A stretch of 54,794 nt of DNA, from assembly GCA_964408175.1 (NCBI GenBank), contig CAYOYL010000057.1:1-54794 (forward strand), read 5' to 3'. This document shows positions 33,829-51,051 of the stretch, one piece after another (the first letter of the stretch is position 1; each line of letters starts with the position of its first letter). The notes below the pieces were generated by a model. That model made no database searches, was not told the DNA's origin, and saw only the letters and a program-made list of their open reading frames with translations. Origin of the DNA: an uncultured bacterium. Lineage in GTDB: Bacteria; Ratteibacteria; UBA8468; B48-G9; JAFGKM01. Position numbers and translations under genes: made by a program.

Positions 33829-34854
33829 TCAGTCCTGCGGGAACTGTTTAAAATAATCCACTTCTTCCAGCATCTTCCCTGTTCCCCTAACCACAGCGGT
33901 TAGTGGGTCATCAGGAAGGAACACCGGCAGTTTGGTTTCCTGCGATATGAGTTTATCAATCCCTTTCAGGAGCGCTCCTCCACCTGCAACGGCGACTCCT
34001 CCTTCAATAAGGTCACTGGACAATTCAGGAGGAGTCTCCTCAAGAATATCTCTTATTGAGTTGACTATCTGGGAAAGTGTATCTTTCAGTGCTTCTCTGA
34101 TTTCCTCAGAATTTACTTTGACCATTTTGGGAAGTCCCTCCACAAGACTTCTGCCATTCACATCCATCGTCAGTTCCTCCTCAAGGGGAAATGCCGAACC
34201 AATCTTAATCTTTATCTCCTCTGCAGTACGTTCTCCTATGAGAAGGTTATACTTCTTTTTCAGGTACTCAATAATTGCTTCATCCATTTCGTTACCAGCA
34301 ACCCTCAAACTTCTCGTAAGAACAATGCCTCCGAGAGAAATAATCGCCATTTCCGTTGTTCCACCACCTATGTCAAGGATAAAACTCCCTTGTGGCTCGG
34401 CCACCGGCAAACCAACTCCTATAGCCGCTGCCATAGGCTCTTCAACCAGGTGAACCACCCTTGCTCCGGCTTTTAGAGCAGTCTCTTTCACGGCTCTCCT
34501 TTCAACGCTGGTTATGCCGGAAGGAATAGCAATGACTATCCGTGGGGGCAGAATAAATCTATGCCTTGGGGTCTTGACCCTCATAATAAAATACCTCAGC
34601 ATAGATTCACAGGCCTCAAAATCAGCAATAACACCATCCTTCATCGGCTTCATCGCAACAATATTTGATGGTGTCTTCCCCAGCATCCTTTTTGCTTCGT
34701 TCCCGACAGCCACAACCTCTTTGGTAGTAAGATTTATCGTAACTATGGACGGCTCCATCAGGATAACTCCCTTTCCGTTGACAAATACACAGGTATTAGC
34801 CGTCCCCAGGTCAATACCCATGTCATTGGAAAAGAAACGCAAAAGTTTAACCAT
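33829..34854 (-). CDS. mreB: Rod shape-determining protein MreB
   Basis: FSNDMGIDLGTANT, the DIGGGTTE phosphate-2 motif, 341 aa. GGGAGAAG RBS. The start overlaps the upstream stop by 8 nt. Confidence 0.95.
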   Translation of the reverse strand: MVKLLRFFSNDMGIDLGTANTCVFVNGKGVILMEPSIVTINLTTKEVVAVGNEAKRMLGKTPSNIVAMKPMKDGVIADFEACESMLRYFIMRVKTPRHRFILPPRIVIAIPSGITSVERRAVKETALKAGARVVHLVEEPMAAAIGVGLPVAEPQGSFILDIGGGTTEMAIISLGGIVLTRSLRVAGNEMDEAIIEYLKKKYNLLIGERTAEEIKIKIGSAFPLEEELTMDVNGRSLVEGLPKMVKVNSEEIREALKDTLSQIVNSIRDILEETPPELSSDLIEGGVAVAGGGALLKGIDKLISQETKLPVFLPDDPLTAVVRGTGKMLEEVDYFKQFPQD

Positions 34855-36265
34855 GTTCTTCTCCCTTTTCTGCTTTAGTTCCTTTCTCCTCCAGAAGTTT
34901 TACAAAAATGTTTACTATCCCACTGTCAAATTGTATACCTGCCCATCTTTTCAGTTCGGAGACGGCCTCCTCCTTCATCATCCTTTTTCTGTATGGTCTC
35001 TCGGAAGTCATCGCACTATAGGCATCAGCAACAGCCAGGATTTTTGCAAAAATGGGTATATCTTCTCCTTTCAACCCTTTCGGATAGCCTTTCCCGTCAA
35101 TCCTTTCATGATGATATAAACAGGCATCTATCTCTCCCTCCCTCAGTCCCAGCGGCTCCAGTATTCTAACGGTCATCTCCGGATGTTGTTTGATAATACT
35201 CATCTCTTCTTCATTGAGAGGTCCGGGTTTTAAAAGTACCACATCCCTGATGCCTACCTTCCCAAGGTCGTGGAGATAAGACGCATTTCTTAAAATTTCA
35301 ATATCTCTGCCCGAAAACCCAAGTTGCTTACCAATAACAACTGAGTAGTAAGCAACCTGTTCGGAATGGCCCTTGGTATATGTATCCCTGGTCTCGAGGG
35401 AGTTAACAAGGGACCGTATGGAATTAAGATAAGAGTTTTTCACAACCTCAAAAAGAGTTGCATTCTCTACACCTATACCTACCTGTGTAGCAAATACCTC
35501 CAAAAATTTAATCTCCTCTTCTTTTATTTTCTTGTTTTCAGGAAATATTATACTGATAAATCCTATCTCCTTTTCTTTGCCGAAAAGGGGTATTATAACA
35601 GTCTCTGTCTCTGTTCCCGTGATGCGAGACTTCCTGTTAGCAAAAATATCCTGCATTTCCCCATGCTCATAACTGACAGGTAATTTTTTTCCCCTACCAT
35701 CTCTGGGAAAGCGCTTACGCAAAATAAAATTTCCATCTTCTTTAAAATAGACAGCCGCGCTTTCCGGCTGGAATATGTTATGAATTATGGCAACGACCTT
35801 CTCAATCAGTGAATCAAGGTTTGTTAGAGAAACAATTATCCTGTTCAGTTCCAGTATCGCTTCTACCATCTTTAACTTTGAAATCTCACCCGAAGGTTTA
35901 CCAACTTCCAGATTATTCTTTACAGTCTGAAGGAAATTCTGGATGTCGAATGGTTTAACAATAAAATCTGAAGCCCCGGATTTCAGGGCTTTCACGGCGT
36001 TTTCAACGGTGCCAAAACCTGTCATTACAACAACAGGTATATCTTTATCCTTTTCCCTCACTGCCGAGATAAAATCAAAACCATTAATCAAAGGCATCTG
36101 TATATCAAGAAGGATGAGGTCAAAGGTATCATTTCCCAGTTTATCTATACCCTCCCTGCCATCTGATGCTAAAGATACGTCATAACCTTCTCTTTCAAGA
36201 ATACGACTGACCAAATCTCTAATACCTACTTCGTCATCAACCACCAGAATTTTTTTTCTATTCAT
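34847..36265 (-). CDS. Response regulator with REC-GAF-HD-GYP architecture (putative c-di-GMP phosphodiesterase)
   Basis: REC (KILVVDDE, LILLDIQMP, VKPF), a central GAF-like region, then HDLGK and HHERIDGKGYPKGL. Confidence 0.85.
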   Translation of the reverse strand: MNRKKILVVDDEVGIRDLVSRILEREGYDVSLASDGREGIDKLGNDTFDLILLDIQMPLINGFDFISAVREKDKDIPVVVMTGFGTVENAVKALKSGASDFIVKPFDIQNFLQTVKNNLEVGKPSGEISKLKMVEAILELNRIIVSLTNLDSLIEKVVAIIHNIFQPESAAVYFKEDGNFILRKRFPRDGRGKKLPVSYEHGEMQDIFANRKSRITGTETETVIIPLFGKEKEIGFISIIFPENKKIKEEEIKFLEVFATQVGIGVENATLFEVVKNSYLNSIRSLVNSLETRDTYTKGHSEQVAYYSVVIGKQLGFSGRDIEILRNASYLHDLGKVGIRDVVLLKPGPLNEEEMSIIKQHPEMTVRILEPLGLREGEIDACLYHHERIDGKGYPKGLKGEDIPIFAKILAVADAYSAMTSERPYRKRMMKEEAVSELKRWAGIQFDSGIVNIFVKLLEEKGTKAEKGEEHG

Positions 36266-36327
36266 TTTTAATATTTGTTGTACCGATAAGACAGGTGAAC
36301 AACGCTACATAACAAAGTGCAGTATTA

Positions 36328-37674
36328 TCAAACAAGTTTATATTTCTGCATCTTATACCTTAAAATTCTCCTTGTAGTTTTAAGATGTTCCGCTGTTTTT
36401 GTCTGGTTCCCGCGATAACTTTCAATTACCTCTTTTATGAGCCGTTTTTCAAAACTTTCGACCGCCTCCTTGAGAGAGTAAACGTCCTGCCTGTGTGAAG
36501 TTTTCAATTCAACAGGCAGGTCATCCACATCTATTATAACCTTATTTCCCCTAAGAACCAAAATCCTCTCAATGATATTTTTAAGTTCTCTGACATTACC
36601 AGGCCAGTCATAATTGTATAGAACATCCAGAGCACTGTGTGAAAATTCTCTGGTCTTACAGAGAAATTGTTTGCTGAGAATATCAAGGTAGAAATCCACC
36701 AATAAACCTATATCTTCTCTTCTTTCCTGCAAAGGGGGGATATAAATGGGTATAACCCCCAGTCTATAAAACAGGTCATCCCTGAACCTTTTTTCTTTTA
36801 CCATATCTGGCAGAGACACAGAAGATGCAGAGATTATCCTTGCATCACTTTTAATTGTATTATTACCACCCAGCCTTGAAAACTCCTTCTCCTGTAAAAA
36901 CCTGAGCAGTTTAACCTGAACAGGCATGGGTATCTCACTAACTTCGTCAAAGAATATCGTACCCGAACCAGCGGTTTCAATCTTCCCTTTTTTACTCTTA
37001 AAAGCATTGGTAAATGCCCCTCTTTCATAACCAAATACTTCGCTTTCAAAAAGTCCTTCAGGGATTGCAGCGCAATGTACTGGAACAAAAGGGTCCCCTG
37101 CTCTCTTACCGTTTTCATGCATAAAACGGGCTACAAGTTCCTTCCCCACCCCAGTAGGTCCTGTCAGAAGAACGTTTGAATCCGTTGCCGCAACCTTCTT
37201 TCCCTCTTTCAGAACCCTTGCCATAACATCACTTTTATATACAATCCTGTCCACGGGATACTCACGGATAACCTCCTCCTTTAAGAAAGAAACCTGCCTT
37301 GACAGTTTGCCCGTCTTCAGAACATTTTCAATGAGCAGTTTCATCTCTTCCGCGTCAAAAGGCTTGGAAATATATTCACAGGCCCCTGCCTTCATAGCTT
37401 CAACCGCTGTTTTAATATGTGAAACAGCGGTTAACATTATGACAGGAACTTCGTCATCATTGTTTTTTATCGTTTTTAAAACCTCAATCCCGCCTATATC
37501 CGGCAGTATAATATCAAGAATAACAAGGTCTATGTTATTATCCTTGAACAGTTCAATAGCCTGATAACCGTTTTCAGCAAGAATAATCTTGTATTTCTCT
37601 TTCAGCAGAAATCTCAGAGATTCCCTGACTCCAGATTCATCATCAACAACAAGTATTTTATCCATTCTTTTCAC
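36328..37674 (-). CDS. Sigma-54-dependent response regulator (NtrC family: REC-AAA+-Fis HTH)
   Basis: REC (ILVVDDE, LVILDIILPD), Walker A GPTGVGKE, a GAFTGA-type loop (ERGAFTNA), and C-terminal HTH NQTKTAEHLKTTRRILRYK. Confidence 0.9.
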   Translation of the reverse strand: MKRMDKILVVDDESGVRESLRFLLKEKYKIILAENGYQAIELFKDNNIDLVILDIILPDIGGIEVLKTIKNNDDEVPVIMLTAVSHIKTAVEAMKAGACEYISKPFDAEEMKLLIENVLKTGKLSRQVSFLKEEVIREYPVDRIVYKSDVMARVLKEGKKVAATDSNVLLTGPTGVGKELVARFMHENGKRAGDPFVPVHCAAIPEGLFESEVFGYERGAFTNAFKSKKGKIETAGSGTIFFDEVSEIPMPVQVKLLRFLQEKEFSRLGGNNTIKSDARIISASSVSLPDMVKEKRFRDDLFYRLGVIPIYIPPLQERREDIGLLVDFYLDILSKQFLCKTREFSHSALDVLYNYDWPGNVRELKNIIERILVLRGNKVIIDVDDLPVELKTSHRQDVYSLKEAVESFEKRLIKEVIESYRGNQTKTAEHLKTTRRILRYKMQKYKLV

Positions 37675-39592
37675 CGTTTTTCGGAAGTGAGATAACCAGA
37701 TTTCTGGCAGATAGAGTTAGAACACATTTGAAACTACCGCCGTGGGACTCCAGAATTTTACGGGTGAGCACCATACCTATAGAAACAGGACTTCTGGTTT
37801 TAGAGTTAAAGGGGACAAAAAAGTCTTCAGAATCGGTCAGATTAATCCTGTTTCCATTTTCAGAGATGGTAACCTCAACATCTTTATCTGTATTCTCAAA
37901 ACAGATACGGGCCTCTCCAACTCCTGCAGTATCTTCATGTATGAAATCAAAGATGTACCCGATAGCCTCTTTGAACTTTTCAGGGTCAATAGGGACAAAA
38001 ACCCCGCTGCTTCCCTCAATATTAAACCTTAAACTGTCTCCCTTTTCTACCTCTTTTATTTTGCTGCGAAACAACTCTACTACATCAACCTCTACAGGCC
38101 TGAGTTCCATTGAATACGCAAGTTTGTTTATCCTGTCTATTATCTCATTTATCCTCTGCACCTCTCCCTGCATAACATCAGAAAATTTTGTCCTGAACTC
38201 CTCGTCGTTATATTTTAGAGGCAGCATCTGGGCAAATGTTTTTATTGCTACGAGGGGATTTTTAAGTTCATGAGAAAGACGGGAAGCAAGTAAATTCCAA
38301 TATCTATTCTTTTCCACCTCTTTCTCCTTATTTTCCATCTCTTTCACAAAGGTCAGGTCATGGAATATGGCAACAGCCCCTTTTCTCACTCCATCCCCGT
38401 TTTTTATAAGGTTTGTACTTAACCCAAGGATAATCCTGCTCGGCACATAGTTTATCTCCACCCTGTCGAATACCTCTCCGGAAATTAAACTTCTCCTGAT
38501 AAAATCTGCTATCTGGGACCCAACCTTTTCCACAGGTTTTCCCATAACCTCTTCAGACTTCAGCCCAAAAATAGTCTCTGCATAAGGATTAAATACCTCC
38601 ACCTTGCCCTCTGTGTCAACTGCTATAATTCCAATGGGGATATTTTTGAAAATTGATTCCTGAGAATCCTTGCGGAATGCTACCTCCCTGTAAAGAGACA
38701 GGTTGTCAAAGACGGTGGCAAGATAATCCATTGTTGTACTTAAAAAAGAGATGTCGGCAAAGGTGGTATCAACGCCAGTAAGTTTGTCACCTGCCAGAAA
38801 GACACCAATAAGTCTGCCGTCAAAGGTCCTGAGAGGAAAAGCAATGCGGCATTTCAAAATGTCCATGAAATTGTTGCAGTCAAAAGGGAGGTCTTTTTCG
38901 GTCGCAAGATTTAGTATGCGGTTTTTGCCCAGAAGCCACATTATCAAAGGATGACTGTGGGCGGCTTCAACCTTGCTTAAAATACTTTCCTCTATACCGA
39001 GAGAAGCAGAGGTTATAAAAGTCTCTTTTTCTTTCAGCAACAGGAGCATTTTGTTAAAATAGAACCTTCTTTTAAGTGTTTTCAATATCTCAACACCAGT
39101 TCTATCTATATCAGGAAAGTTTTCAGTTATTGTCTGGAAGAGTTCCTGAAAAAAATGCTCTCCGTTCTCACTTCTGTCAGTAATCTTGTTCATTCCCCTC
39201 ACGGATAGGTCTTCCCGCAAACGGATGTTCTCCTTCAAAAGTTTTTCTCTCTCAACGGCTTTATTGATAAGGTGCGTTATCCTTTCCGCAGAAAGTGGTT
39301 TCTCAACCATATCAAATACACCGGACCCAATTGCTTGCCTTGCAGCAGTACCAAAAGAAGAGACAATCTTTATCACCGTTAGAGTCGGGTCATACTCAAG
39401 CAGTCTTACCAGTAAATCTCTGGAATCCATGGTTAACTGAGAATCCAGAAAAATTGCTGTAGGTCTACTCTCTGTGATTGCTTTTAAAGCATTCACAGGC
39501 ATAACACCATCCACTATGAATTCTTTTCCCAGTATTGCCTTTAACGAAGAAGTGAGATCTTTATCCTCTGTTATCAAAAGTATGTAACCCAT
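37658..39592 (-). CDS. REC-GAF-PAS-HisKA protein with a degenerate ATP-binding (HATPase) domain
   Basis: Receiver-like N-terminus (ILLITEDKD, AIFLDSQL, VEKPL) and H-box LSHELKNPLVAIKTF. The N/G1/G2 boxes are replaced by FDFIHED, ENGNRI and SPVSIGM. Start set at MGYILL (39592, GGAGAAAGGAA upstream) rather than 39655. Confidence 0.75.
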   Translation of the reverse strand: MGYILLITEDKDLTSSLKAILGKEFIVDGVMPVNALKAITESRPTAIFLDSQLTMDSRDLLVRLLEYDPTLTVIKIVSSFGTAARQAIGSGVFDMVEKPLSAERITHLINKAVEREKLLKENIRLREDLSVRGMNKITDRSENGEHFFQELFQTITENFPDIDRTGVEILKTLKRRFYFNKMLLLLKEKETFITSASLGIEESILSKVEAAHSHPLIMWLLGKNRILNLATEKDLPFDCNNFMDILKCRIAFPLRTFDGRLIGVFLAGDKLTGVDTTFADISFLSTTMDYLATVFDNLSLYREVAFRKDSQESIFKNIPIGIIAVDTEGKVEVFNPYAETIFGLKSEEVMGKPVEKVGSQIADFIRRSLISGEVFDRVEINYVPSRIILGLSTNLIKNGDGVRKGAVAIFHDLTFVKEMENKEKEVEKNRYWNLLASRLSHELKNPLVAIKTFAQMLPLKYNDEEFRTKFSDVMQGEVQRINEIIDRINKLAYSMELRPVEVDVVELFRSKIKEVEKGDSLRFNIEGSSGVFVPIDPEKFKEAIGYIFDFIHEDTAGVGEARICFENTDKDVEVTISENGNRINLTDSEDFFVPFNSKTRSPVSIGMVLTRKILESHGGSFKCVLTLSARNLVISLPKNGEKNG

Positions 39593-42059
39593 TTCCTTTC
39601 TCCCCGTCAGTATGCAAAGGCAGTTCCACTGAAACGGTGGTACCCTCTCCTTCAATACTATCCACTTTCACAAAACCACCGTGTTCTTCTATTATTCTTG
39701 TCACTATGGACAGCCCCAGCCCTGTCCCCTTCTCCTTGGTAGTAAAAAAAGGCTCAAATATTTTATCTAAAAGGTCATGTCTAATCCCACATCCATTATC
39801 CTGTATCTTCACAACTGCACGTCCATCTTTCTTCTCTATATTAACATTTATGGCTCCTTTTGTATCTATTGACTGAGCACTGTTAATACAGACGTTCAGA
39901 AAAGCCTGCCTCAACTTACCCTCATCGCCCTTAAGAATAATCTTATCCGAACAGTAGTTTTCCTTTATCTCTATCTCTTTATCAGGGAATTGTCCGGACA
40001 ACAGAACAATAGTATTTCCCAACACATCTACAAGGTCAATTTCTTTCAATACAGGGCCTCTCGGCTTCGCAAAAACGAGTATCTGCTCCACCAGTGTATT
40101 TATCCTTTCAACCTCTTTTATGGTAAGCGCAGAAAATTTTTCACGGAACTCCCTGTCGTTATATTTCTCAGGCAGAAGGTGCGCGAATGTCTGTATTGAG
40201 ACAAGAGGGTTTTTTATTTCATGTGCTATCCCTGCCGCCATAATTCCCAGAGAGGCATATTTTTCCGCACGCTGCATTTCTTCTTCCAGTTTTTCTATAA
40301 GAGTAACGTCAGCAAAGATTATCTGGACACCTGCAAGGCTGCCGTCTCTATCCGAGAAAACTGAAGAACTTGCATTAAGAGAGATTTCAGATTCATCCTT
40401 TTTTATCTTAAACTGAAGATGTCTGATACCTTCCTTCTTTTCAATTGAATAAGCAAGAATTTTTTTTATTTCTTCAGGCAGGGTTTTACTAAAATGTTCG
40501 TGCTCAATCTGCAACTTCCCCAGACCTGTGATTCTTTCAGCCTCTTTATTAACCACAGTAACGGCTCCATTTTTATCTATGCCTATAACTCCTATGGGCA
40601 GGTTTTCAAGCAGAGACTCCTGATAAATCTTCCCCCTTTCAAGTTGTTCATAAAACAGGAAGTTTTGCAACTTAAGAGAAAGATAGTGAGAAAGTCTCGC
40701 AAAAATCTCTTCGTCCTGCGGACTGTAAAACCGGCCTGAAACCTTTTCTCCAAAACAAAGTATGCCAAATAGATGATTTTGTTCACCAAGTAAAGGAATC
40801 ACTATCTCGGACTCCAATGCATCCATCTCTTTGATGACCTCTAAATTCTCATCGGTTTGAATCCTCCTCTCAATTTCACCCTTTATTAAAGGTGAGTGTG
40901 TCCTGCGGATAAAGCCTTCTAACTGAGAGGGATAAAGTGACCCTTCAATATCAACAAATTCCTGGAGGTTATGCGAAATAGAAAAGATAATTTTTTTCTC
41001 GCCAGGCCCCAAAAAGTAGACCTTCCCGCTCGTTATCCCAACACTCTCAAGAATTATCTTCATGCACCTGCTAAGAAATACCTTTACATCTCCCACAGTA
41101 TAAAGAAGTTTCTCTAACCCCGCGAGGATATTTTCAGTTGAATATTCCAGATTAAAAACCCTGAAACTGACAAGGTCATTTATCTTCCTGCGGATGGGTT
41201 CAAACGCAAAGATGACAACCAGTATGGCAAGCGTCTCTTCCAGCAGGGAGCCCGGGGTAAGGTATGGAAATAACAACCACTTCAAGATAAAGAGCGATAG
41301 GTTATAGAGAAGAAAAATGGATAGGACAACAAAAGAGTAGGATAGAACTTTTTGCATCAGCACAGAGACGTCCAGAATCTTATACTTTGCTATACCATAT
41401 CCTATGATGCCGTTCATTATCACCACGCCTAAAGGACTGAACTGAGCAAGCAACTGTGTTTTTAAGATTATATGCAAAACAAAGTTACACAGAATCACAA
41501 AAATGAATCCAAAAAAACACCCTAAAAGTATATATTGGACCTCAGCGCGCGCCAGACCTTTTTTTATCTTCAGTTTCTTCAACAATACTGCAAAAGCGTA
41601 AGCCGCAACAGTTAAAAATAAAACAAAGTATACAAAGAAAGGCCACCCATAGGTAGCATGCGGCAGGTTAACCGCCTCACCCTTTTTTACTACCACCTCT
41701 TTGACAAAAGAAGGCAGGAAGCCGAGAGAAAAATTGACGGCTGTTAATACCGCCATCAGTAAAAACCCCTTCTTCTTAAGAAAATCTACCTTCTTCTCCC
41801 CAATTGTATATACCAGAGATAGAAGAGATAAGGTAACAGTACTGCCCGCAATAAATGAACCCCTTATCCATATCTCTGCCATTAACGGGGTACTCGCATT
41901 GACAATTAACAGTATAACTGTATTCCATATCCATATATCTATACCGAGATAAGAAAAAACGCGGTTGGAAAGCCGCTTTGGATTACTCTTATAGACAAGG
42001 TAGATAATAAGTGCGTTGAACAAGAGGGTAAATATCAAAACTACCGTCGTAATATTCAT
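39561..42059 (-). CDS. Membrane sensor histidine kinase (polytopic N-domain, GAF, PAS, HisKA, HATPase)
   Basis: ~300 aa of hydrophobic helices, H-box AHEIKNPLVSIQTF, N-box LNVCINSAQ, G1 DNGCGI, G2 GTGLGLSIV. Confidence 0.9.
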   Translation of the reverse strand: MNITTVVLIFTLLFNALIIYLVYKSNPKRLSNRVFSYLGIDIWIWNTVILLIVNASTPLMAEIWIRGSFIAGSTVTLSLLSLVYTIGEKKVDFLKKKGFLLMAVLTAVNFSLGFLPSFVKEVVVKKGEAVNLPHATYGWPFFVYFVLFLTVAAYAFAVLLKKLKIKKGLARAEVQYILLGCFFGFIFVILCNFVLHIILKTQLLAQFSPLGVVIMNGIIGYGIAKYKILDVSVLMQKVLSYSFVVLSIFLLYNLSLFILKWLLFPYLTPGSLLEETLAILVVIFAFEPIRRKINDLVSFRVFNLEYSTENILAGLEKLLYTVGDVKVFLSRCMKIILESVGITSGKVYFLGPGEKKIIFSISHNLQEFVDIEGSLYPSQLEGFIRRTHSPLIKGEIERRIQTDENLEVIKEMDALESEIVIPLLGEQNHLFGILCFGEKVSGRFYSPQDEEIFARLSHYLSLKLQNFLFYEQLERGKIYQESLLENLPIGVIGIDKNGAVTVVNKEAERITGLGKLQIEHEHFSKTLPEEIKKILAYSIEKKEGIRHLQFKIKKDESEISLNASSSVFSDRDGSLAGVQIIFADVTLIEKLEEEMQRAEKYASLGIMAAGIAHEIKNPLVSIQTFAHLLPEKYNDREFREKFSALTIKEVERINTLVEQILVFAKPRGPVLKEIDLVDVLGNTIVLLSGQFPDKEIEIKENYCSDKIILKGDEGKLRQAFLNVCINSAQSIDTKGAINVNIEKKDGRAVVKIQDNGCGIRHDLLDKIFEPFFTTKEKGTGLGLSIVTRIIEEHGGFVKVDSIEGEGTTVSVELPLHTDGEKGNGLHTFDNRG

Positions 42060-43279
42060 TCAAAACTCCTGAGGAGAACAGACGAATTGGCACCTCCAAA
42101 ACCATGAGAATTAACCAAGGCGGTTCTTATCTTATTAAACCTCGGGTAGTTAGGAACGTAGTCCAGGTCACACTCAGGGTCAGGATATTCATAATTTAAC
42201 GTGGGAATTATTATATCGTCACGCATACCGAGGACGACAGATATTACCTGCAGGACCCCAGCGGCCGAATAGGGATTACCTATATGTCCTTTTATGGAAC
42301 TTACCGGTATCCTGTATATTGATGAACCGAAGACTGATTTAAGAGTATTTGTTTCGCATAAATCCAGCATTACGTCTGACGGAGCATGTGCAGAAACATA
42401 ACTTATTTCATCCGTACCTACATCCGCATCGGCAAAAGACCTCAATATCGCCCTGTAAAGACCTGAACCCATTTCTTCTTTCCCTTCTATACTCTGGCCA
42501 TAACCGATAACCTCTCCGTAGATATCTGCACCTCTTGTCACAGCCATGTCCATATCTTCAAGCATGAGCACCGCAGCCCCTTCTGAAAGAATACCCCCGT
42601 CGCGAAATCTGTCAAAGGGTCTGCTTGCCTTTTCCGGATTTTCATTTTTAGACATAATGTCTGCGGCACACAATGTGGCAAGCATCAGTGGGGTAACGGG
42701 ACAATCTGAGCCCCCTGCAAGAACACTCTCTGCCTCGCCGTTTTTTATCATCTGGTACCCATGCCCTACAGCATCCAAACCGGAAGCGCACCCTGTTGAA
42801 ACGGTGATATTAAAGTTCGTAAGACCCAGGGCACCTGCAATCTCACCTGATGGAGCGTTGGGCACGCTGACAAAGGATGAAACAGGGTTTATTCTCTTCA
42901 ACCCTTTTGAATACAATGTCCTGCATTGTTCCTCCATAGTCTTGAAGTCAGTACTGGAGATGCCCATAATAATACCTGGGGACATTCCTCTTACACCCTT
43001 TATATCAAACATGGCATCTTCCAGTGCCATCTTAGCACAGGCAACTGCAAACTGCGAAAACCTGGCCATTTTTCTCGCCTTCTTTTTTTCTATAAAGTCA
43101 TCAGGATTAAAATCTGTAACCTCTCCTGCAATTCGGACGGGATATTCAGAGGCATCAAAAAAACTTATTTCTTTTATCCCGCTTTTTCCGGTCTTTAATG
43201 CATCCCAGAAGTCATTCTTCCCTATACCGTTGGGAGCCACCACCCCTATACCTGTGATTACAACCCTGTGTCTCTTCAT
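42056..43279 (-). CDS. Beta-ketoacyl synthase (KAS II / type II PKS-like KS)
   Basis: VVITGIGVVAPNG, the active-site Cys in STGCASGLDAV, His in SAHAPSD and KGHIGNPYSAAG, and C-terminal NSHGFGGANSSVLL. ATGA overlap with the downstream kinase gene. Confidence 0.85.
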   Translation of the reverse strand: MKRHRVVITGIGVVAPNGIGKNDFWDALKTGKSGIKEISFFDASEYPVRIAGEVTDFNPDDFIEKKKARKMARFSQFAVACAKMALEDAMFDIKGVRGMSPGIIMGISSTDFKTMEEQCRTLYSKGLKRINPVSSFVSVPNAPSGEIAGALGLTNFNITVSTGCASGLDAVGHGYQMIKNGEAESVLAGGSDCPVTPLMLATLCAADIMSKNENPEKASRPFDRFRDGGILSEGAAVLMLEDMDMAVTRGADIYGEVIGYGQSIEGKEEMGSGLYRAILRSFADADVGTDEISYVSAHAPSDVMLDLCETNTLKSVFGSSIYRIPVSSIKGHIGNPYSAAGVLQVISVVLGMRDDIIIPTLNYEYPDPECDLDYVPNYPRFNKIRTALVNSHGFGGANSSVLLRSFE

Positions 43280-43282
43280 TCT

Positions 43283-43393
43283 TTAGGCCTTCCCGTTAAT
43301 AAAATCTATCTCATCCTCCAGCCCTTTCCTGTTGCCTGAGTAAAAGAAACACCTGTGTCTCTCTAAAAATTCATTCAGTGAACTGAACCTGCT
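43283..43393 (-). pseudogene. Orphaned 3' end (36 codons plus stop) of the IS-interrupted radical SAM gene
   Basis: Removing 43402-45670 in silico joins this segment in frame to 45671-47228. It reads SRFSSLNEFLERHRCFFYSGNRKGLEDEIDFINGKA and ends at a TAA 3 nt before the KS ATG. Confidence 0.7.
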
Positions 43394-43467
43394 GTGTTTG
43401 TCAATGATTTCTGATTAAGGCCACAGAGTAGTACCCACCTACCAAAACAAACATTTTTCAAGAAGCC

Positions 43468-43496
43468 TTGACAGCGGGGCGGGATTCTGGTATAAT
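43468..43496 (+). promoter_or_regulatory. Consensus sigma-70 promoter inside the IS left end (TTGACA-N17-TATAAT)
   Basis: TTGACA at 43468-43473 and TATAAT at 43491-43496, 35 nt upstream of the orfA ATG. Confidence 0.65.
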
Positions 43497-43531
43497 CCTA
43501 AGTGATTAATAATATAGAACAGGCGGAAAAG

Positions 43532-43966
43532 ATGAAAACACTAAGCGAGACAAGGAAAAGGATAGTAGATTTGCAGAAGGAGAAATACCGGATAGAGAAG
43601 AGTTTGCTTCGTCCGCTGCCGATGGTGCCGTATGCCCTGATAGAACATTATGGGGAATGCGGCAAGAAGGTCTGCCGTTGCCACGGTGGGCAGTTACACG
43701 GTCCATACTGGTATTTAAGCCAGCATAGGGACGGCAAGACCCGCAACATCTACGTACCGAAAGAAAAAGCAGAAAAGATACAGGTATTGGCAGACAGGTA
43801 CAAACAATACGAAGGCAAACTGACACAGTTACGGGCGATACAGAAAGAGATAATGGATTTGTTGAAGGAGATAGAGAAAAGCGCATATGTACCGCCATCC
43901 AAGATGAACCTTAAACGACCAGCGGAGAGGAAATGGAAAAGAAAGAACAAGCAAGGGAAACCGTAA
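43532..43966 (+). CDS. IS accessory protein (small Cys/His-containing, basic)
   Basis: ECGKKVCRCHGGQLHGPYWYL is a zinc-ribbon-like motif often seen upstream of transposase genes. Start set at ATG 43532 rather than GTG 43502. Confidence 0.6.
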   Translation: MKTLSETRKRIVDLQKEKYRIEKSLLRPLPMVPYALIEHYGECGKKVCRCHGGQLHGPYWYLSQHRDGKTRNIYVPKEKAEKIQVLADRYKQYEGKLTQLRAIQKEIMDLLKEIEKSAYVPPSKMNLKRPAERKWKRKNKQGKP

Positions 43967-45444
43967 TCGGGATAATGCCTTATGACCGTGAGAAAGTATT
44001 AAGCAAACTGAAGCAGAAGAAATACGACGACATATTTATTCGGGACAGGGGAAGGCTGGATGATTTTGTAGGGTTTTTGTACCAGACAGGGGTACTGGGG
44101 CTGTTTGACGGGATAGACAGCAGGATGGAGAGAAAGCCTGAGATACCCCGGCAGTTTTTGCATTACTGCATATCCTTAAAACCGGTGGTGGACAGCGCCA
44201 GCATAAATCAACTGCCCGGCAGACTGCTTGAGGATACTGATAGTCTGCGGACGCTGGGGTTCACGATGGTAGCGATGGAAAAAGGGTTTTCGGTGAAGAA
44301 CAAAAACGGGAACAATGTGCCGGTAAATATAAACGCGTTTTATGATGAACTGGCACGGCTGCCGGAAACAGAGAGCAAGAAGTTTTTCACCTCGGGTGTA
44401 GAGTTATTGGACAAGAAACGGTTTTTATCAAAGAAGTCCGGGGTATACGCGTTGGACGGCGTGAAGTTGCTGATTACCGGCGATAAGAAATACGAGAATT
44501 ACGGAAAGATAACAATAGAGGACAAAAATGGCAAACGGGTAAAGGAAAAAGGGTATAAACTGGTGTTCCTGCAAAGGGTAGATGGCGATGACCATTATAT
44601 AGTTGCGGCTAAGTTGATCCCGTTAAACCAGCAGGAGATAACGGTAGCAGAAGAACTGGTTGAAGAAGCGCTTTGCGTGCTGGGTGAAAACAGCATAAAA
44701 ACACTCCTGATAGACAGAGGGTTTCTTTCAGGTTCGTTTTTTGATTATCTGGGCGGTAAGGGGATTGATTTTATCTGCCCGACAAAAGATACATTACACC
44801 TTACCCGGCATATGCAGGGGCTGCACCGCGCAGGCGAAGGGGTTAAGACAACACTTGCCGACGGTACGGTATTGGCAGGATATAACTGCCTGATACCGAT
44901 GGACGGCTGCAAGAGGAAAATCAACGGAGTATTGATAATCAAACAGGGTAACAAGGCGCGCAAGAAGGTAATAGAAGGTAACGAGTTCGGATTCCTTACC
45001 AGTTTGCCTACCGGACAGAATCAACAGATTGAAAAGGTTTATAACCTTTACAGCCGGCGCTGGAAGATTGAGGTTAACGGCAACAGGGAACTAAAGAGCC
45101 AGTGGTATATCAACAAATTTCCCTCGCAGAAGTGGAACGGTTTATGCACGCATATTTACTTTACCCTGTTTATGTTCAACGTGGTGGCTGCCTTTAAAAG
45201 CAAGAAAGGACGTGCATTAACGGAAAAAGGGATGTTGTCCATTCGGAATAAGTATTTCACCTCTTGGAGTAAAACCCACACGGTCAATGTAATTGCCGGC
45301 GGATACTGCGCCACTTTCCCGTTTAAAGATTTCGTCCAAATCTTCGGACTGCCGCCGCCCTCAGGCAAGTATGAGAATTCCTTCTGGGTAACCAAACCTG
45401 ACGGAAGGAAAGAACTCTGGTACGTAGAAAACTCCAAACTGTAG
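43933..45444 (+). CDS. DDE transposase (IS4 / IS1634-like)
   Basis: YSRRWKIEVNGNRELK fits the IS4-type Y-x2-R-x3-E...K signature. 503 aa, lying between the inverted repeats. It has its own ATG after GGAGAGG. Confidence 0.8.
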   Translation: MEKKEQARETVIGIMPYDREKVLSKLKQKKYDDIFIRDRGRLDDFVGFLYQTGVLGLFDGIDSRMERKPEIPRQFLHYCISLKPVVDSASINQLPGRLLEDTDSLRTLGFTMVAMEKGFSVKNKNGNNVPVNINAFYDELARLPETESKKFFTSGVELLDKKRFLSKKSGVYALDGVKLLITGDKKYENYGKITIEDKNGKRVKEKGYKLVFLQRVDGDDHYIVAAKLIPLNQQEITVAEELVEEALCVLGENSIKTLLIDRGFLSGSFFDYLGGKGIDFICPTKDTLHLTRHMQGLHRAGEGVKTTLADGTVLAGYNCLIPMDGCKRKINGVLIIKQGNKARKKVIEGNEFGFLTSLPTGQNQQIEKVYNLYSRRWKIEVNGNRELKSQWYINKFPSQKWNGLCTHIYFTLFMFNVVAAFKSKKGRALTEKGMLSIRNKYFTSWSKTHTVNVIAGGYCATFPFKDFVQIFGLPPPSGKYENSFWVTKPDGRKELWYVENSKL

Positions 45445-45517
45445 AGCCGGTATGTCTACAAGAATCCTCCATACGCATGTTTTGGTGAATATTGTGTCTT
45501 TTGCACCCTCACCCGGA

Positions 45518-45540
45518 CCCTCTCCCTTCAAGGGAGAGGG
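45518..45540. repeat. Hairpin repeat CCCTCTCCC-TTCAA-GGGAGAGGG inside the IS right arm
   Basis: 9-10 bp stem preceded by CACCCTCACCC. Same motif style as the hairpins at 9119, 13888 and 13968. Confidence 0.6.
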
Positions 45541-45656
45541 ACAAAGACAATTTACGTCTCTTCCTTATCTGTAATATCTGGGAAAATATTGCCCCTGGTA
45601 TGAAAATGTTCGCCTGCTCTCTTTTTTTCTGGTTTTCAGGTATCCTTAATCAGAAA

Positions 45657-47228
45657 TTATTGGTGTTTGTATAACAGATATGCCTCATCTGGCACTGATG
45701 TTATAATACCCTCTTTCTGGATATCCCTCTGAAACCTTTCGGTTTCCCGGGCAAACTCCTTAAAAGACATCCCGTTTATTTTATAAGGCAGGGGTTCCCA
45801 GTAACTTGGAGGGAAGAGACTCTTTATCTGGTAGGTCATCATTCTCAAAGGATAAGCCTTTCTGTCCTCCATTGTAAAGTTAAACCTTTCCGGCGTTTTA
45901 AACCACTGAGTCCCAGGATATATACCTGAGAACTGTACAAGTGCTGAGTCAGGTCTTACCTCTCTTATAAAATTTATCGTTTTTTCCCTGCTCTTTTCGG
46001 TTTCAAAGGGAGCAGGATATATCAAACTGACCACCGTGAATATACCCGCAGACCTACATCTCTGCAGAACCTTTTTAGCCGATTCAATGTCAATCTTCTT
46101 GTTCATACCCTCTTTCAGTATCTCTTCATCAGCGGACTCTATCCCGAAAAAAATTGATTCGCAGCCGGACTGCTTCAATAGATTAAAGTCTGTATCAGTA
46201 TCAGTCACGAGACCAAAACTTGAATACCTGACGCTGATTTTTTCATCAATTATCCTTTTCGCCACCTCCATCATAAGACCTGAAGGGGTACTTGAACCTG
46301 CATACCTGAAAAGGTTGAATCCATACCTTTCCCTCCCATGCTTTATCTCCTCTATTATCCTGTCAGCAGATTTTTCTCTCCTCTTACCGCTCTTTACCGG
46401 ATGTATGCAAAAATAACAACTGTTGGGACACCCGCGACTCTCGTCCAGAACGAGCATCTTCAGTTTCTTATCTATGTTAAGGTAGACATCCGGCGTATAA
46501 ACGGGCAGGGGCAGTTTATCAAGTTTATCTACATACTTTCTCCTGGTCTTTACAATAGTTCCATCCCCATTTTTAAAAATAATGTTCGGTATATCTTCCA
46601 GTCTCTCTTTGCCCTGTACATAATTGTACAGCAGTTTTATTGTCTCCTCCCCTTCTCCATAGCACAGCGCGTCAAAAAAACCTCCGACCTTGTAAATCTC
46701 CTGTCCAAAAATGTCCACCTGTGGTCCGCCACCGATAATCTTCAGTTCAGGATACCTCTCTTTAAGATATCTACCTGCTTTAATGGACCACATAAAACCG
46801 TCCCCTGCCCACAGTTTAAAACCGATGCATCCTATATTTTCCTCCTTTATAAGGTCAGCAAGATACACATTAAATCTTTCGGAGAAAACATTCTTCCTCT
46901 TTTCAAGAGAGTTGCTCACTGACCTAAGCCGTATTATATCCAGCAGAGAGGGTTTCTTCCCCTCAATAAACACCTTATGCGAAAACTTTCCAAGAAATCC
47001 TGATATTCTGTCTGTAAAAACCTCTGAAAAGAGAGAGGGCTGGTTTATATCCAGTATCTTCACCTTACAACCTTCTTCTATCAAAGAAGCGGCGAGAATA
47101 GCCAGTCCATTATCGGGGATAAAACTGGAGATTATGTTGGGAAGCCCTGCAGCAGATACCAGCAAAAAATTTTCTTTCATAGTTTGTATTATACAAAAAT
47201 GTACAGTCCCCTGCAAATTTTTTCTCAC
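45657..47228 (-). CDS. B12-binding-domain radical SAM protein, 3' end clipped by the IS
   Basis: The N-terminal Rossmann-like B12-binding region (LKIIGGGPQ) is followed by ESRGCPNSCYFCIHP (CxxxCxxC). The last sense codon (CAA) and the TAA stop lie inside the IS right inverted repeat. An alternative start at 47180 (MKENF) is possible. Confidence 0.8.
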   Translation of the reverse strand: MRKNLQGTVHFCIIQTMKENFLLVSAAGLPNIISSFIPDNGLAILAASLIEEGCKVKILDINQPSLFSEVFTDRISGFLGKFSHKVFIEGKKPSLLDIIRLRSVSNSLEKRKNVFSERFNVYLADLIKEENIGCIGFKLWAGDGFMWSIKAGRYLKERYPELKIIGGGPQVDIFGQEIYKVGGFFDALCYGEGEETIKLLYNYVQGKERLEDIPNIIFKNGDGTIVKTRRKYVDKLDKLPLPVYTPDVYLNIDKKLKMLVLDESRGCPNSCYFCIHPVKSGKRREKSADRIIEEIKHGRERYGFNLFRYAGSSTPSGLMMEVAKRIIDEKISVRYSSFGLVTDTDTDFNLLKQSGCESIFFGIESADEEILKEGMNKKIDIESAKKVLQRCRSAGIFTVVSLIYPAPFETEKSREKTINFIREVRPDSALVQFSGIYPGTQWFKTPERFNFTMEDRKAYPLRMMTYQIKSLFPPSYWEPLPYKINGMSFKEFARETERFQRDIQKEGIITSVPDEAYLLYKHQ

Positions 47229-47297
47229 ATCCCTTCAAAAACTCTTATTAAGAAATATAAAGATGCAACATCCCATTATGAAATGAATCCGTCATTT

Positions 47298-47316
47298 TCT
47301 GAATGGTATCTTCAGA
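47298..47316. promoter_or_regulatory. Perfect palindrome TCTGAA-N7-TTCAGA, candidate enhancer-binding-protein site
   Basis: Centred ~66 bp upstream of the -24 element. The half-site TTCAGA recurs at 47352-47357, next to GCTGAC. Confidence 0.35.
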
Positions 47317-47371
47317 TTGAGGTTATTATTAATTTATACAGGCTGACATTTTTCAGAGATATTCTGGCAGT

Positions 47372-47387
47372 TGGCACACTTTTTGCA
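47372..47387 (+). promoter_or_regulatory. Sigma-54 promoter (TGGCAC-N5-TTGCA)
   Basis: TGGCACACTTTTTGCA matches the -24/-12 consensus exactly, with correct GG-to-GC spacing. It sits ~27 nt upstream of the FadL-like ATG, with GGAGG in between. Confidence 0.75.
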
Positions 47388-47413
47388 CATAATATAATGG
47401 AGGTGCGACCAAA

Positions 47414-48625
47414 ATGGGAAAAAAATGTAAATTGCTTTTTTTGTGGAGGTTGGTATCTATTATTATGTTTTTGTTTTTCAATGTTTCTTTAATCCTTGCG
47501 CAGGGATTTAAAAATCCGCCGGAAGGAATCTCTGCCCTTTCGCAGGCAGGTGCCTTTATCGCACAGTGCGATGATGCCTCAGCCGTCTCCCACAACCCTG
47601 CAGGATTAGCACAGATTGAGGGAGAGCAGATAATGTTTGGCAGTGTATTCCTTTATCCAACCACCTCATATAAAAACGGGGGGAGTGAAGATGCAGTATC
47701 CAACATGGCCTACCTGCCCTTTATCTATTATGCAACAAATATGGGCAGAGAAAATCTAAGATTCGGCATAGGTCTCTCCTCACCATACGGACAGGCAACA
47801 GAGTGGAGTGACGACGTTATAAAAAATTGGGGTGTCAATCTTATAACCGGGACATACACCATCCCTTATTACTCTTCAATGCAGACGATTAACGCCTCCC
47901 CTGTCCTTGCATATAAATTCACTCCGCAGTTTTCTGCCGGTCTTGGGCTGAATCTTTACTACAGCAAACTGGGCGTAAATTATTTAACTCTGGCAGATAT
48001 GCCCGCCAAGATAGAGACGGCTGGTACAGGACTCGGAGGCATACTCGGGCTGCTGTACAAAGAAAAAAACTACAGCATCGGGTTCAACTATAAAAGCGGT
48101 TTTGACATTGACTATGACGGGAACTTCAAGGTTCCGGGAGTTTTGAAAACGGATGCATCATTAGAGATGAAATACCCGCAGATAGCAGGAATCGGTCTTG
48201 CCGTCTATCCTAACCAGAAGATGAAGATTGAGTTTGATGCGGAATGGACGGACTATTCCTGTTTAGAAAAAATCCCGGTTGACATAACAGGTGTTACTTC
48301 CTACGATGTTCCAAAAAAGTGGAAGGATTGCTATATGTTTTCACTCGGGACAGAATACAAAAAATCTGAGAGTATAAAATTAAGAGGCGGCATTGCCTAC
48401 CTCACAAACCCTGTCCCTGATTCAACGTGGGACCCGAGCCTGCCGGCCTCTGACAGTATCGTGGTTGTAGTGGGAGGTGAATCCCTAAGCAGATTTGGCA
48501 GTTTCAGCCTCTCTCTCGGCGCAAACATTTACAGGGAAAGGAAGTTAGAAAAAGGAGAATTATACGATGGGAAATACAGGTCAACAGGATACTTTTGCAC
48601 ACTCGGATACAAAAAATCGTTTTAG
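47414..48625 (+). CDS. Outer-membrane hydrophobic-compound channel (FadL/TodX/OmpP1 family)
   Basis: Signal peptide, then the N-terminal hatch motif GFKNPPEGISALSQAGAFIAQCDDASAVSHNPAGLA. Alternating beta-strand pattern and a C-terminal aromatic residue (KKSF). Confidence 0.8.
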   Translation: MGKKCKLLFLWRLVSIIMFLFFNVSLILAQGFKNPPEGISALSQAGAFIAQCDDASAVSHNPAGLAQIEGEQIMFGSVFLYPTTSYKNGGSEDAVSNMAYLPFIYYATNMGRENLRFGIGLSSPYGQATEWSDDVIKNWGVNLITGTYTIPYYSSMQTINASPVLAYKFTPQFSAGLGLNLYYSKLGVNYLTLADMPAKIETAGTGLGGILGLLYKEKNYSIGFNYKSGFDIDYDGNFKVPGVLKTDASLEMKYPQIAGIGLAVYPNQKMKIEFDAEWTDYSCLEKIPVDITGVTSYDVPKKWKDCYMFSLGTEYKKSESIKLRGGIAYLTNPVPDSTWDPSLPASDSIVVVVGGESLSRFGSFSLSLGANIYRERKLEKGELYDGKYRSTGYFCTLGYKKSF

Positions 48626-49748
48626 TACTGATGATGTAAAAGAAACCATTCTGGTCATTGATGATGAACTGGGACCGAGAGAATCTCTGAGGATGCTGTT
48701 CAAGGATGACTACCATGTTATTACCGTAGAAAACGGAGATGAAGGCATTGCAGCCCTGAAAGAAAACAATCCAGATGTGGTCATTCTTGACCTTAAGATG
48801 CCCGGGAAAAACGGTATTGAAACATTTGAAGATATAAGAGACATTGATGAAAAGGTCCCCGTAATAATACTGACAGGCTATGGGGATATGGATGCTGCAA
48901 AAAAAGCGATACACCTGGGTGCTCTTGAGTTTATAAACAAACCCTTTGATATAAAAGAGATGCGGAGTATTGTAAGAGAAGCCTGTGAAAAAATATCTAT
49001 TGAAAAACGCTCGGAGAGGTTGATTTATCAACTGAATACACTGAACAACAGCCTGAAGGAACGGATGGAACAGCTTGAAAATATGGCGACAATAGGACAG
49101 TTTTCTGCAGAAGTTATACACGAGATTAACAATATGCTTACGGTTATTTACGGATATGCTCAGATTCTTATGAGTGAGATAGACAAGGGCAGCCTGCAGA
49201 ACGGGAATAAAAAATATATAAGCATTATAGAGAATGAGATAAAGCGGTGCAGAAACATAACAAAAAGCGTGATTGAACTGGCAAGGACAAAGATGGATAA
49301 AAAAGATGTCAATATCAACAGTATTATAGATAAAATAGTGGAACTGTTTGAAAACTCCAACATCGCAAAAGAGGTAAGGTTCATAACTGAATACGACAGA
49401 AGTTTACCCGACATCAAGGCAGACCCAAACCAGATACATCAGGCAATAATCAATGTCGTGCTCAACAGCATTCAGGCAATAGACTCAGATGGTCAGATTG
49501 TCATAAAAACCTCCATTAATGGAACCAGCCTGTCTGTTTCTATAAAAGACAACGGCAGGGGTATGACCGAGGAAACAATCAGTAGAATAACCGAGCCTTA
49601 TTTTACAAACAACAAAAAGGATGGAACAGGACTGGGACTTTCCATAACAAACAGGGTAGTAAAAAACCATAACGGCAGAATAGAAATCAGAAGTGAACTG
49701 AGCAAAGGGACTGAATTTATTATCTACCTACCTCTTACGGAGGTATGA
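48567..49748 (+). CDS. REC-HisKA-HATPase hybrid histidine kinase
   Basis: REC (ILVIDDE, VVILDLKMPG, INKPF), H-box EVIHEINNMLTVI, N-box VVLNSIQA, G1 DNGRGM, G2 GTGLGLSI. AAGGAG RBS. Overlaps the porin gene by 59 nt. Confidence 0.85.
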   Translation: MGNTGQQDTFAHSDTKNRFSTDDVKETILVIDDELGPRESLRMLFKDDYHVITVENGDEGIAALKENNPDVVILDLKMPGKNGIETFEDIRDIDEKVPVIILTGYGDMDAAKKAIHLGALEFINKPFDIKEMRSIVREACEKISIEKRSERLIYQLNTLNNSLKERMEQLENMATIGQFSAEVIHEINNMLTVIYGYAQILMSEIDKGSLQNGNKKYISIIENEIKRCRNITKSVIELARTKMDKKDVNINSIIDKIVELFENSNIAKEVRFITEYDRSLPDIKADPNQIHQAIINVVLNSIQAIDSDGQIVIKTSINGTSLSVSIKDNGRGMTEETISRITEPYFTNNKKDGTGLGLSITNRVVKNHNGRIEIRSELSKGTEFIIYLPLTEV

Positions 49749-50960
49749 GTTGAGTATTCCCTGTTGATGCCTGTATTTATTTACCGTCCTGACAGAAATT
49801 TTTATACCATCCTTTGTAAGTTTTTTAACAATCTGTCTGTCAGAAAGAGGTTTCCCTTCCTTCCACAGTATATCTTTTATCCTGTCAATAATAAAGTGCT
49901 TGCTTATAGAATCTCCCACGCTCCCTGAGAAAAAACTTCTCATTTTCATAAATCCTGCAGGTGTTTCCAAATACTTTCTGTTAACCGCGCGGCTTATGGT
50001 AGAAATACTCACGCCCCTTCTCTCCGCTATATCTTTCTCCCTTAAAGGTAAAAGGCTTCCACCCTCAAGATACTTCTTCTGATATTCCACAATCTCCTGA
50101 AAGACATCCGTGAGAAACCTGTGCCTCTCGGAAAGAATCCTCAAAAGAGTTCTTGCCTGCTCCAGTTTCTTCCTGAGAAATCTACGTTCTCTGGCAGAAA
50201 TCAACGGATTTTCAGCCTCCTTCTCGTACAGGGCATTTATCTTGAGAAGCGGATACATCTTCTCATCAAGGTAAACCCTGAAGTGCCCCCTTTTTTTAAC
50301 CACCCTTCCCTCTGGCATTATATAACGGGCAGTCTTCTTAAATAGACCTCTCAGGGGTGCGGAAGTAAATTTTTTTAGATTCTCTATTTCCTTCCTGACA
50401 TCAGAAACGTCAATGTGCAGACCGCCGCTTATTTTCTTGTGTTCTCTCTTTACAACTGCCTGCCAGTAGTCCCTTACAATCAGGTAAAGGATTGAGTCCT
50501 TATCTAAATATCTCTCAATCTGTAAAAGCAAAGACTCCTGCAGGTCTCTTGCACCAAGTCCTGCAGGCTCAAGAGACTGGACAATCTTTAAAGCATCTTC
50601 AACCTTCCTTTCTCCGGTTCCCAAAACCCTGACAATCTCGGAAAGAGGCTTTCTAAGGTATCCGTCTTCATCAAGGTTTTCTATTATGTACTCCCCTATT
50701 TTTAACATCTCTTTTGAATCCGTTGAAAGACGCAGATTGTGTACCAACTGGTCAAAATATGCATTGTCATCAGGAACGTCAGAGGCTACAAATCCTGTCT
50801 CTTTCAACTTCTCAAACTCCAGAAAGGGGTTTGACTCAGCCTGCTTCTTTACAAAATCCACCACCTCAAAAAACGGCATGTTCACAAGACTCAGGAATAA
50901 CTGCTGCCTCGGAGCAAGCAGCAGTCTGTGTTGAAGTTTTGTTTCTACCTTAATCTGCAT
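49728..50960 (-). CDS. rpoN: RNA polymerase sigma-54 factor
   Basis: Region I MQIKVETKLQHRLLLAPRQQLFLSL, a C-terminal HTH, and the RpoN box ISVRTVNKYR. Start set at 50960 (GGAGG 7 nt upstream). ~410 aa, so region II is short. Confidence 0.9.
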   Translation of the reverse strand: MQIKVETKLQHRLLLAPRQQLFLSLVNMPFFEVVDFVKKQAESNPFLEFEKLKETGFVASDVPDDNAYFDQLVHNLRLSTDSKEMLKIGEYIIENLDEDGYLRKPLSEIVRVLGTGERKVEDALKIVQSLEPAGLGARDLQESLLLQIERYLDKDSILYLIVRDYWQAVVKREHKKISGGLHIDVSDVRKEIENLKKFTSAPLRGLFKKTARYIMPEGRVVKKRGHFRVYLDEKMYPLLKINALYEKEAENPLISARERRFLRKKLEQARTLLRILSERHRFLTDVFQEIVEYQKKYLEGGSLLPLREKDIAERRGVSISTISRAVNRKYLETPAGFMKMRSFFSGSVGDSISKHFIIDRIKDILWKEGKPLSDRQIVKKLTKDGIKISVRTVNKYRHQQGILNSYLRKR

Positions 50961-51051
50961 TGTCATCCCTCCATATAGATTATTACCTTTCTTCCCCTTT
51001 TTTTCAACCCCCATTCCATGCCGGGGATGAAACGGGGAAATCTGAAAAGGG

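Follow-up and report, generated by a model that had tools for sequence, protein, structure and literature searches.

The insertions of IS1 and IS2 into the gal and lac operons are the classical cases of polar insertion sequences (ISs). In them, an IS lies within an operon and ends translation early, so that a long stretch beyond it stays untranslated, the setting for Rho-dependent polarity on distal genes. Here we describe an IS that creates the same setting in contig CAYOYL010000057.1 (assembly GCA_964408175.1) of an uncultured bacterium; the window that we analyzed is the whole 54,794-nucleotide stretch. The IS sits in the 3' end of a gene for a B12-binding radical S-adenosylmethionine (rSAM) enzyme, directly upstream of a gene for a β-ketoacyl synthase (KS) and two histidine kinases. 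Unlike the IS1 and IS2 cases, polarity is in this instance deduced, for an organism that is uncultured. We consider it highly likely that a two-gene, IS4-like element has entered the rSAM gene in a young event, truncating the protein and parting its gene from KS, and that it thereby probably inactivates the enzyme and lowers expression of KS and the kinases.

The closest described relatives of the element are found in the IS4 family, whose members are 1150-1750 bp long, duplicate 7-13 bp of target, about one helix turn, have 5'-CA-type ends and encode transposases with the spacing D(60-110)D(100-150)E and the signature Y-(2)-R-(3)-E-(6)-K (De Palmenaer, Siguier and Mahillon 2008, PMC2266710). 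The nearest subgroups are IS4Sa, with an 8-10 bp duplication and the end pattern CA------T, and ISPepr1, with a duplication of 7-8 bp (PMC2266710). The interrupted gene belongs with the class B rSAM enzymes, of which TsrM (6wte), OxsB (5ul4), MgmA (9ccb), CysS (9n1b) and TokK (7kdx) have solved structures; all share with it an N-terminal B12-binding Rossmann domain followed by an rSAM core with a CxxxCxxC motif.

The complete element occupies positions 43402-45662 (2261 bp), with its own genes on the plus strand, opposite to the operon. Its ends are inverted repeats of 19 bp, CAATGATTTCTGATTAAGG on the left (43402-43420, plus strand) and CAATAATTTCTGATTAAGG on the right (45644-45662, read on the minus strand); by script they match at 18 of 19 positions, and the likeness ends beyond them. 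The copies of the element in contig C256 of the same genome and in G022 have this G variant in their left repeats as well, so the one mismatch characterizes the family and does not reflect decay. Flanking the repeats are two copies of GTGTTTGT, at 43394-43401 and 45663-45670, identical at all eight positions. An earlier note, made from the sequence without database searches, had described both the repeats and the perfect 8-bp duplication; the sequence bears this out, and a DDE_Tnp_1 transposase is encoded between the ends. Such a duplication of the target would be expected from the staggered strand transfer of a DDE transposase. The rSAM open reading frame (ORF), on the minus strand, now ends in LLYKH followed by one glutamine codon (45660-45662) and a TAA (45657-45659), both located inside the right repeat, just as the note had stated.

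What does the locus look like once the element is taken away? Removal of 43402-45670, that is, the IS and one copy of the duplication, yields the empty-site junction CTGCTGTGTTTGT|ATAACAGAT, in which ATAACAG follows CTGCTGTGTTTGT. The rSAM frame then continues for 36 further codons, SRFSSLNEFLERHRCFFYSGNRKGLEDEIDFINGKA, to a TAA at 43283-43285. The KS start codon is the ATG at 43277-43279, and the restored junction reads TAA-AGA-ATG, with 3 nt between stop and start; our script thus reproduces the in silico excision of the earlier note. The chance of an 8-bp match between flanks is about 1.5e-5, and the matching duplication, the inverted repeats and the gap-free return of the conserved C-terminus together exclude a chance origin.

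Could the IS reads have been misjoined into the operon during assembly? The genome bin is fragmented into 281 contigs, and Logan contigs do break within the element (at 43518, and at 45171 or 45265), as a repeat would cause them to. A misjoin, however, would not create an 8-bp duplication exactly flanking the inverted repeats, nor would its excision bring back the conserved end of a protein with no gap. Moreover, two JGI assemblies (3300001533 and 3300077317) contain the element in full; three runs yielded Logan contigs that extend over the right junction, and one Logan contig, present in three samples, does so over the left junction (window 40069-43518), each at 100% identity to the window. 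With both junctions bridged at this identity in three kinds of assembly, the insertion is not a misassembly, and we regard an artefact as exceedingly improbable.

As a consequence of the insertion, the rSAM gene (45657-47180, minus strand) encodes 507 residues, 506 native and one glutamine supplied by the IS; this product equals the database protein P0001. The enzyme has thus lost its last 36 residues in exchange for one. The remainder of the gene lies orphaned at 43283-43393 (minus strand), 36 codons and a TAA with the frame still open. The start of the gene is the ATG at 47180 (MKENFLL, as in homologues) rather than the GTG at 47228. A promoter-like TTTGCA-18-TATAAT at 47217-47188 (minus strand) ends 7 nt ahead of this ATG; the rSAM mRNA would therefore be leaderless or nearly so.

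Homologues show that the lost residues belong to the protein. A search with the restored sequence returned 99 relatives, nearly all 540-548 residues long, most of which cover 97-100% of the searched residues 300-558, tail included; P0001 covers 86% of that region. The junction LLYKH|SRFSSL aligns without a gap to 23 homologues. The tail is identical to that of the closest homologue, P0002, at 27 of 36 positions (75%), the same value as for the whole protein, and holds three residues, R, G and N, that are invariant in the homologue alignment. The gene is present in 33 of 41 related genomes, where complete matches extend to residues 539-542, and among these relatives only in the present genome does the match stop early, at residue 510. 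The earlier note had held that the native C-terminus was removed and had set the alignment of the 36-residue tail to homologue C-termini as its own test; homologues run past the present stop and match the reconstructed tail, and the claim survives. In an AlphaFold2 model of P0002, built with 72 homologues (mean pLDDT 95), residues 512-525 and 528-541 form helices with pLDDT 92-97. As modelled, then, the lost 36 residues are a structured and conserved part of the rSAM fold. Loss of this pair of terminal helices, conserved and modelled with confidence, probably leaves the truncated enzyme inactive or unstable.

Which kind of rSAM enzyme has been truncated? Its class B membership follows from the Pfam Radical_SAM and B12-binding domains (PF04055, 82.4 bits against a cut-off of 29.5; PF02310, 40.9 against 32.1). 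The cluster motif reads CPNSCYFC, with its three cysteines invariant in the 72 homologues. No model of a named B12 rSAM subfamily reaches its cut-off (PhpK, 115 of 600 bits; HpnJ, 112 of 578; ApyD, 108 of 750; the ladderane-type TIGR04072, 76 of 360). Foldseek aligned the P0002 model to the solved class B structures with E-values of 1e-21 to 1e-14 and TM-scores of about 0.55-0.63, and phmmer matched TokK at 5.6e-15. Sequence likeness to the five solved enzymes ends near residue 434; the C-terminal domain of residues 435-542, which includes the lost tail, is therefore specific to this rSAM family.

The gene that follows encodes an intact KS of 407 residues (42056-43279, minus strand). It possesses both the N- and C-terminal Pfam ketoacyl-synt domains but scores 399.1 bits against TIGR03150 (β-ketoacyl-ACP synthase II), under the cut-off of 493.75, and for this reason we call it FabF-like and not an equivalog. 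Next in the co-directional string is a 7TM-PAS histidine kinase of 832 residues (39561-42059, minus strand), with a 4-nt overlap between its start and the KS stop. KS stands directly 3' of the rSAM gene in all 12 related loci that we compared, and in 9 of them the two genes overlap (TAATG or ATGA) or lie no more than 5 nt apart. The TAAAGAATG junction recurs unchanged in a genome of the same genus, and within the genus the junctions of loci L025 and L026 are tight, with a 3-nt gap or an ATGA overlap. Gaps of 53-126 nt precede KS in 3 of the 12 loci (126 nt in L023 and L027, 53 nt in L031), two of which appear to be the same sequence. The tightly coupled rSAM-KS pair of the earlier note is thus recovered across relatives, which also keep the wider gene order: a divergent FadL-like porin, rSAM, KS, the 7TM-PAS kinase and a receiver-PAS kinase.

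How would the insertion affect these downstream genes? At present 2269 bp separate the rSAM gene from KS. Within the element, a sigma-70 promoter with all 12 consensus positions (TTGACA-17-TATAAT, with TG before the -10 box; 43468-43496, plus strand) points at the 3' end of the rSAM gene and is antisense to it. The genome encodes Rho (680 bits against a cut-off of 509). Transcription from the rSAM promoter would have to cross some 2.3 kb of untranslated RNA beyond the new stop codon, against this opposing consensus promoter and with Rho present. On these grounds, expression of KS and of the kinase genes after it is probably reduced, unless these genes are served by separate promoters. The earlier note had placed a strong promoter and a hairpin inside the element. 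Both are present, the promoter with a perfect consensus, but the hairpin is not a canonical terminator: no T-run accompanies it on either strand, and a terminator scan did not flag it. A search for an operator palindrome over the IS promoter returned only a weak ATTAAT palindrome.

Alternatively, the insertion may be real but neutral for the downstream genes, with KS and the kinases expressed from their own promoters or from an outward promoter at the left end of the element, so that only the rSAM enzyme is hit. The last three bases of the element facing KS and the adjoining target form TTG|ACA, a perfect -35 hexamer directed at KS; we rejected this hybrid promoter, since at a distance of 16-18 nt the candidates for a -10 box are TTCACT, TCACTG and CACTGA, none of them usable. 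Weak outward promoter-like sites do occur on the minus strand (43538-43509, 9 of 12 positions), but such sites are no commoner than in shuffled sequence (12 versus 8.2 +/- 2.9). The KS ribosome-binding site, GGGAAGG, survives within the orphaned tail, all downstream genes are intact, and the wider gaps before KS in some relatives are compatible with separate expression; against this, the tight junctions within the genus (L025 and L026) leave no room for a promoter outside the rSAM coding sequence. On balance, we judge a neutral outcome for KS and the kinases unlikely, though a serious contender.

Several considerations nevertheless weigh against an insertion that both inactivates the enzyme and lowers expression of its neighbors. 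Polarity and the loss of rSAM function are both read from the sequence. The truncated protein retains the whole B12 domain and the rSAM core (residues 1-506) and might keep activity. KS in L023, L027 and L031 may have its own promoter. Finally, every assembly in which we found the locus carries the insertion, the only allele seen at the level of assembly consensus, but this says little about the population, as these assemblies are perhaps not independent: they may all trace back to a single lake sample, and SRR2989655 and MLSed do derive from one sediment sample, taken from Mahoney Lake, British Columbia, in July 2008 (PMC4846661). The possible polymorphism suggested in the earlier note finds no support in these assemblies or in the protein collection, which contains no intact allele.

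When did the insertion occur? The two copies of the duplication do not differ, neither IS ORF is interrupted, and the orphaned tail has acquired no stop and has diverged no further than the remainder of the gene; the genes downstream have also kept their full length. By these marks the event is apparently young on an evolutionary scale, in keeping with the recent insertion proposed in the earlier note. The opposite view holds that the insertion is old and fixed and that the locus is a decaying pseudo-operon. It can point to the presence of the insertion in all assemblies, to the lack of an intact allele among approximately 15 billion proteins, where nothing was closer than 75% identity, and to the state of the other copies in the genome, which have either diverged (83% identity) or survive as lone ends only. 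Decay, however, is not what the locus displays: both orfA and orfB of the element are open, the eight duplicated bases are unchanged, the 111-nt tail is stop-free and as similar to P0002 (75%) as the part of the gene under selection, and KS and both kinases have lengths equal to those in relatives. We therefore hold an old, fixed insertion to be improbable and favor a young event. A 26-mer of the empty site was unmatched in metagenome contigs; so was a 28-mer of the filled left junction that is known to be in JGI contigs, and this search accordingly carries no weight.

The element contains two genes. The first, orfA (43533-43966, plus strand), encodes a small DUF6788 protein of 144 residues (Pfam PF20586, 70.5 bits against a cut-off of 27.2) with the Cys3-His-like motif CGKKVCRCH...HGPYWY. 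A start at GTG 43502 would give 154 residues, and JGI annotation has both versions; we favor ATG 43533 because the -10 box of the IS promoter ends at 43496. The second, orfB (43933-45444, plus strand), overlaps orfA by 34 nt in another frame and encodes a transposase of 503 residues whose residues 169-416 match DDE_Tnp_1 (PF01609) at 57.2 bits, against a gathering threshold of 23. In an alignment of 18 family members, D175, D261, E380, Y373 and R376 do not vary, and K388 hardly does. A programmed -1 frameshift joining the two frames was considered and rejected, as the 34-nt overlap contains no slippery heptamer, and in the sole database "fusion" of 593 residues (P0107) the upstream part is an out-of-frame extension rather than orfA.

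Is this an IS4 element? The spacers between the catalytic residues, 85 and 118 residues, fall within the IS4 range, Y-x2-R-x3-E is shared, and, as in that family, the transposase occupies one ORF without a frameshift, orfB holding the whole DDE domain. The ends read CAATAATTT and, as in IS4Sa, begin with 5'-CA and have T at position 9; the duplication, 8 bp here and 7 bp for the G022 copy, agrees with IS4Sa and ISPepr1. In contrast to the IS4 signature, the residue at E+7 is an invariant leucine (L387) and the conserved lysine is K388, so that the signature becomes Y(2)R(3)E(7)K. Typical IS4 members also lack a separate upstream orfA and do not reach 2261 bp, a length that is due to the second gene and to about 200 bp of 3' non-coding DNA with a repeat resembling repetitive extragenic palindromic (REP) sequences. 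The NCBIfam IS4 models NF033592, NF033591 and NF049925 all score orfB under their cut-offs (79.5 versus 115, 32.3 versus 152 and 31.8 versus 250 bits). With the lysine one residue too far from the glutamate, sub-threshold NCBIfam scores and a second gene on board, the element is, on its sequence features, IS4-like and not a strict IS4 member. A sequence search of the PDB with the transposase gave no match even at E = 10, and our search for literature on DUF6788 or on Omnitrophota insertion sequences found nothing relevant.

The event itself is an ordinary gene disruption by an IS4-like element: an element with a DUF6788 orfA and a DDE orfB has most likely transposed into the 3' end of a class B rSAM gene in an Omnitrophota population of Mahoney Lake sediment. 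Why, then, is it of interest? It supplies base-pair boundaries, terminal repeats and a duplication length for a rare IS4-like family that pairs its transposase with a DUF6788 protein and that was found in Omnitrophota only. It also assigns the C-terminal 36 residues to the conserved fold of an uncharacterised B12 rSAM family, and, with these residues cut off, accounts for the truncated protein (P0001, 507 residues) that gene callers report here. Furthermore, it provides a natural mutant of an order-wide rSAM-KS-kinase module, which could aid the assignment of function through comparison of populations with and without the insertion. More tentatively, and with somewhat less than even confidence, we propose that the element represents an undescribed two-gene, IS4-related lineage confined to Omnitrophota and that the insertion is a natural knock-out; if so, the module of FadL porin, B12 rSAM enzyme, KS and kinases is dispensable in Mahoney Lake sediment.

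The order-wide conserved module, at 34847-50960 of the window and in loci L021-L033, also includes an NtrC-type or HD-GYP regulator after the kinases. Divergent from the rSAM gene is the FadL/TodX-like porin gene (47414-48625), and rpoN lies at 49728-51014. A search for sigma-54 sites ahead of the rSAM gene or KS found none; the only perfect consensus, TGGCACACTTTTTGCA at 47372-47387 (plus strand), serves the porin gene.

How widespread is the element? Its family is rare, with 24 protein clusters named from Omnitrophota metagenome bins only, and patchy, occurring in 4 of 41 relatives. A foreign base composition was considered and dismissed, as the IS has 45.6% GC and the genome 43.8%. The genome holds one other full copy (C256:49-2309, also 2261 bp), which is 83% identical and has no clean duplication. 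Left ends of the element occur at two contig ends (C10 and C127) and a piece resembling the right end on C181. The G022 copy has its 7-bp duplication, while the G008 copy has an internal stop and none. A distant two-gene element at C11:246-2152 (minus strand) shows the same overlapping order, with a DUF6788-like ORF (35% identical) ahead of a gene for a DDE transposase (27%), and a solitary DUF6788 gene is present at C66:2-298.

The 19-mer of the right repeat has 13 sites in the genome at two or fewer mismatches. Three exact copies of the terminal repeat stand alone (C32:20855-20873, C89:5437-5455 and C111:11918-11900), with no partner at five or fewer mismatches within 3.5 kb and no transposase nearby; deletions may have left these lone ends behind. 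At C89 the sequence outside the repeat, CTGTTTGC, is similar to the target GTGTTTGT of the present insertion. Finally, the hairpin of the earlier note, CCCTCTCCCT-TCAA-GGGAGAGGG at 45517-45541, is part of the 38-bp palindromic REP-like repeat CACCCTCACCCGGACCCTCTCCCCTCAAGGGAGAGGGA in the 3' non-coding region of the element (45503-45541). This repeat is absent from the C256 copy and has at least 12 further copies in the genome, often at contig ends; sites were recorded at C42:8848, C227:3603, C32:18, C17:4708, C160:22138, C27:6371, C253:1, C63:1, C250:35, C269:1, C123:1, C171:3549 and C129:212.

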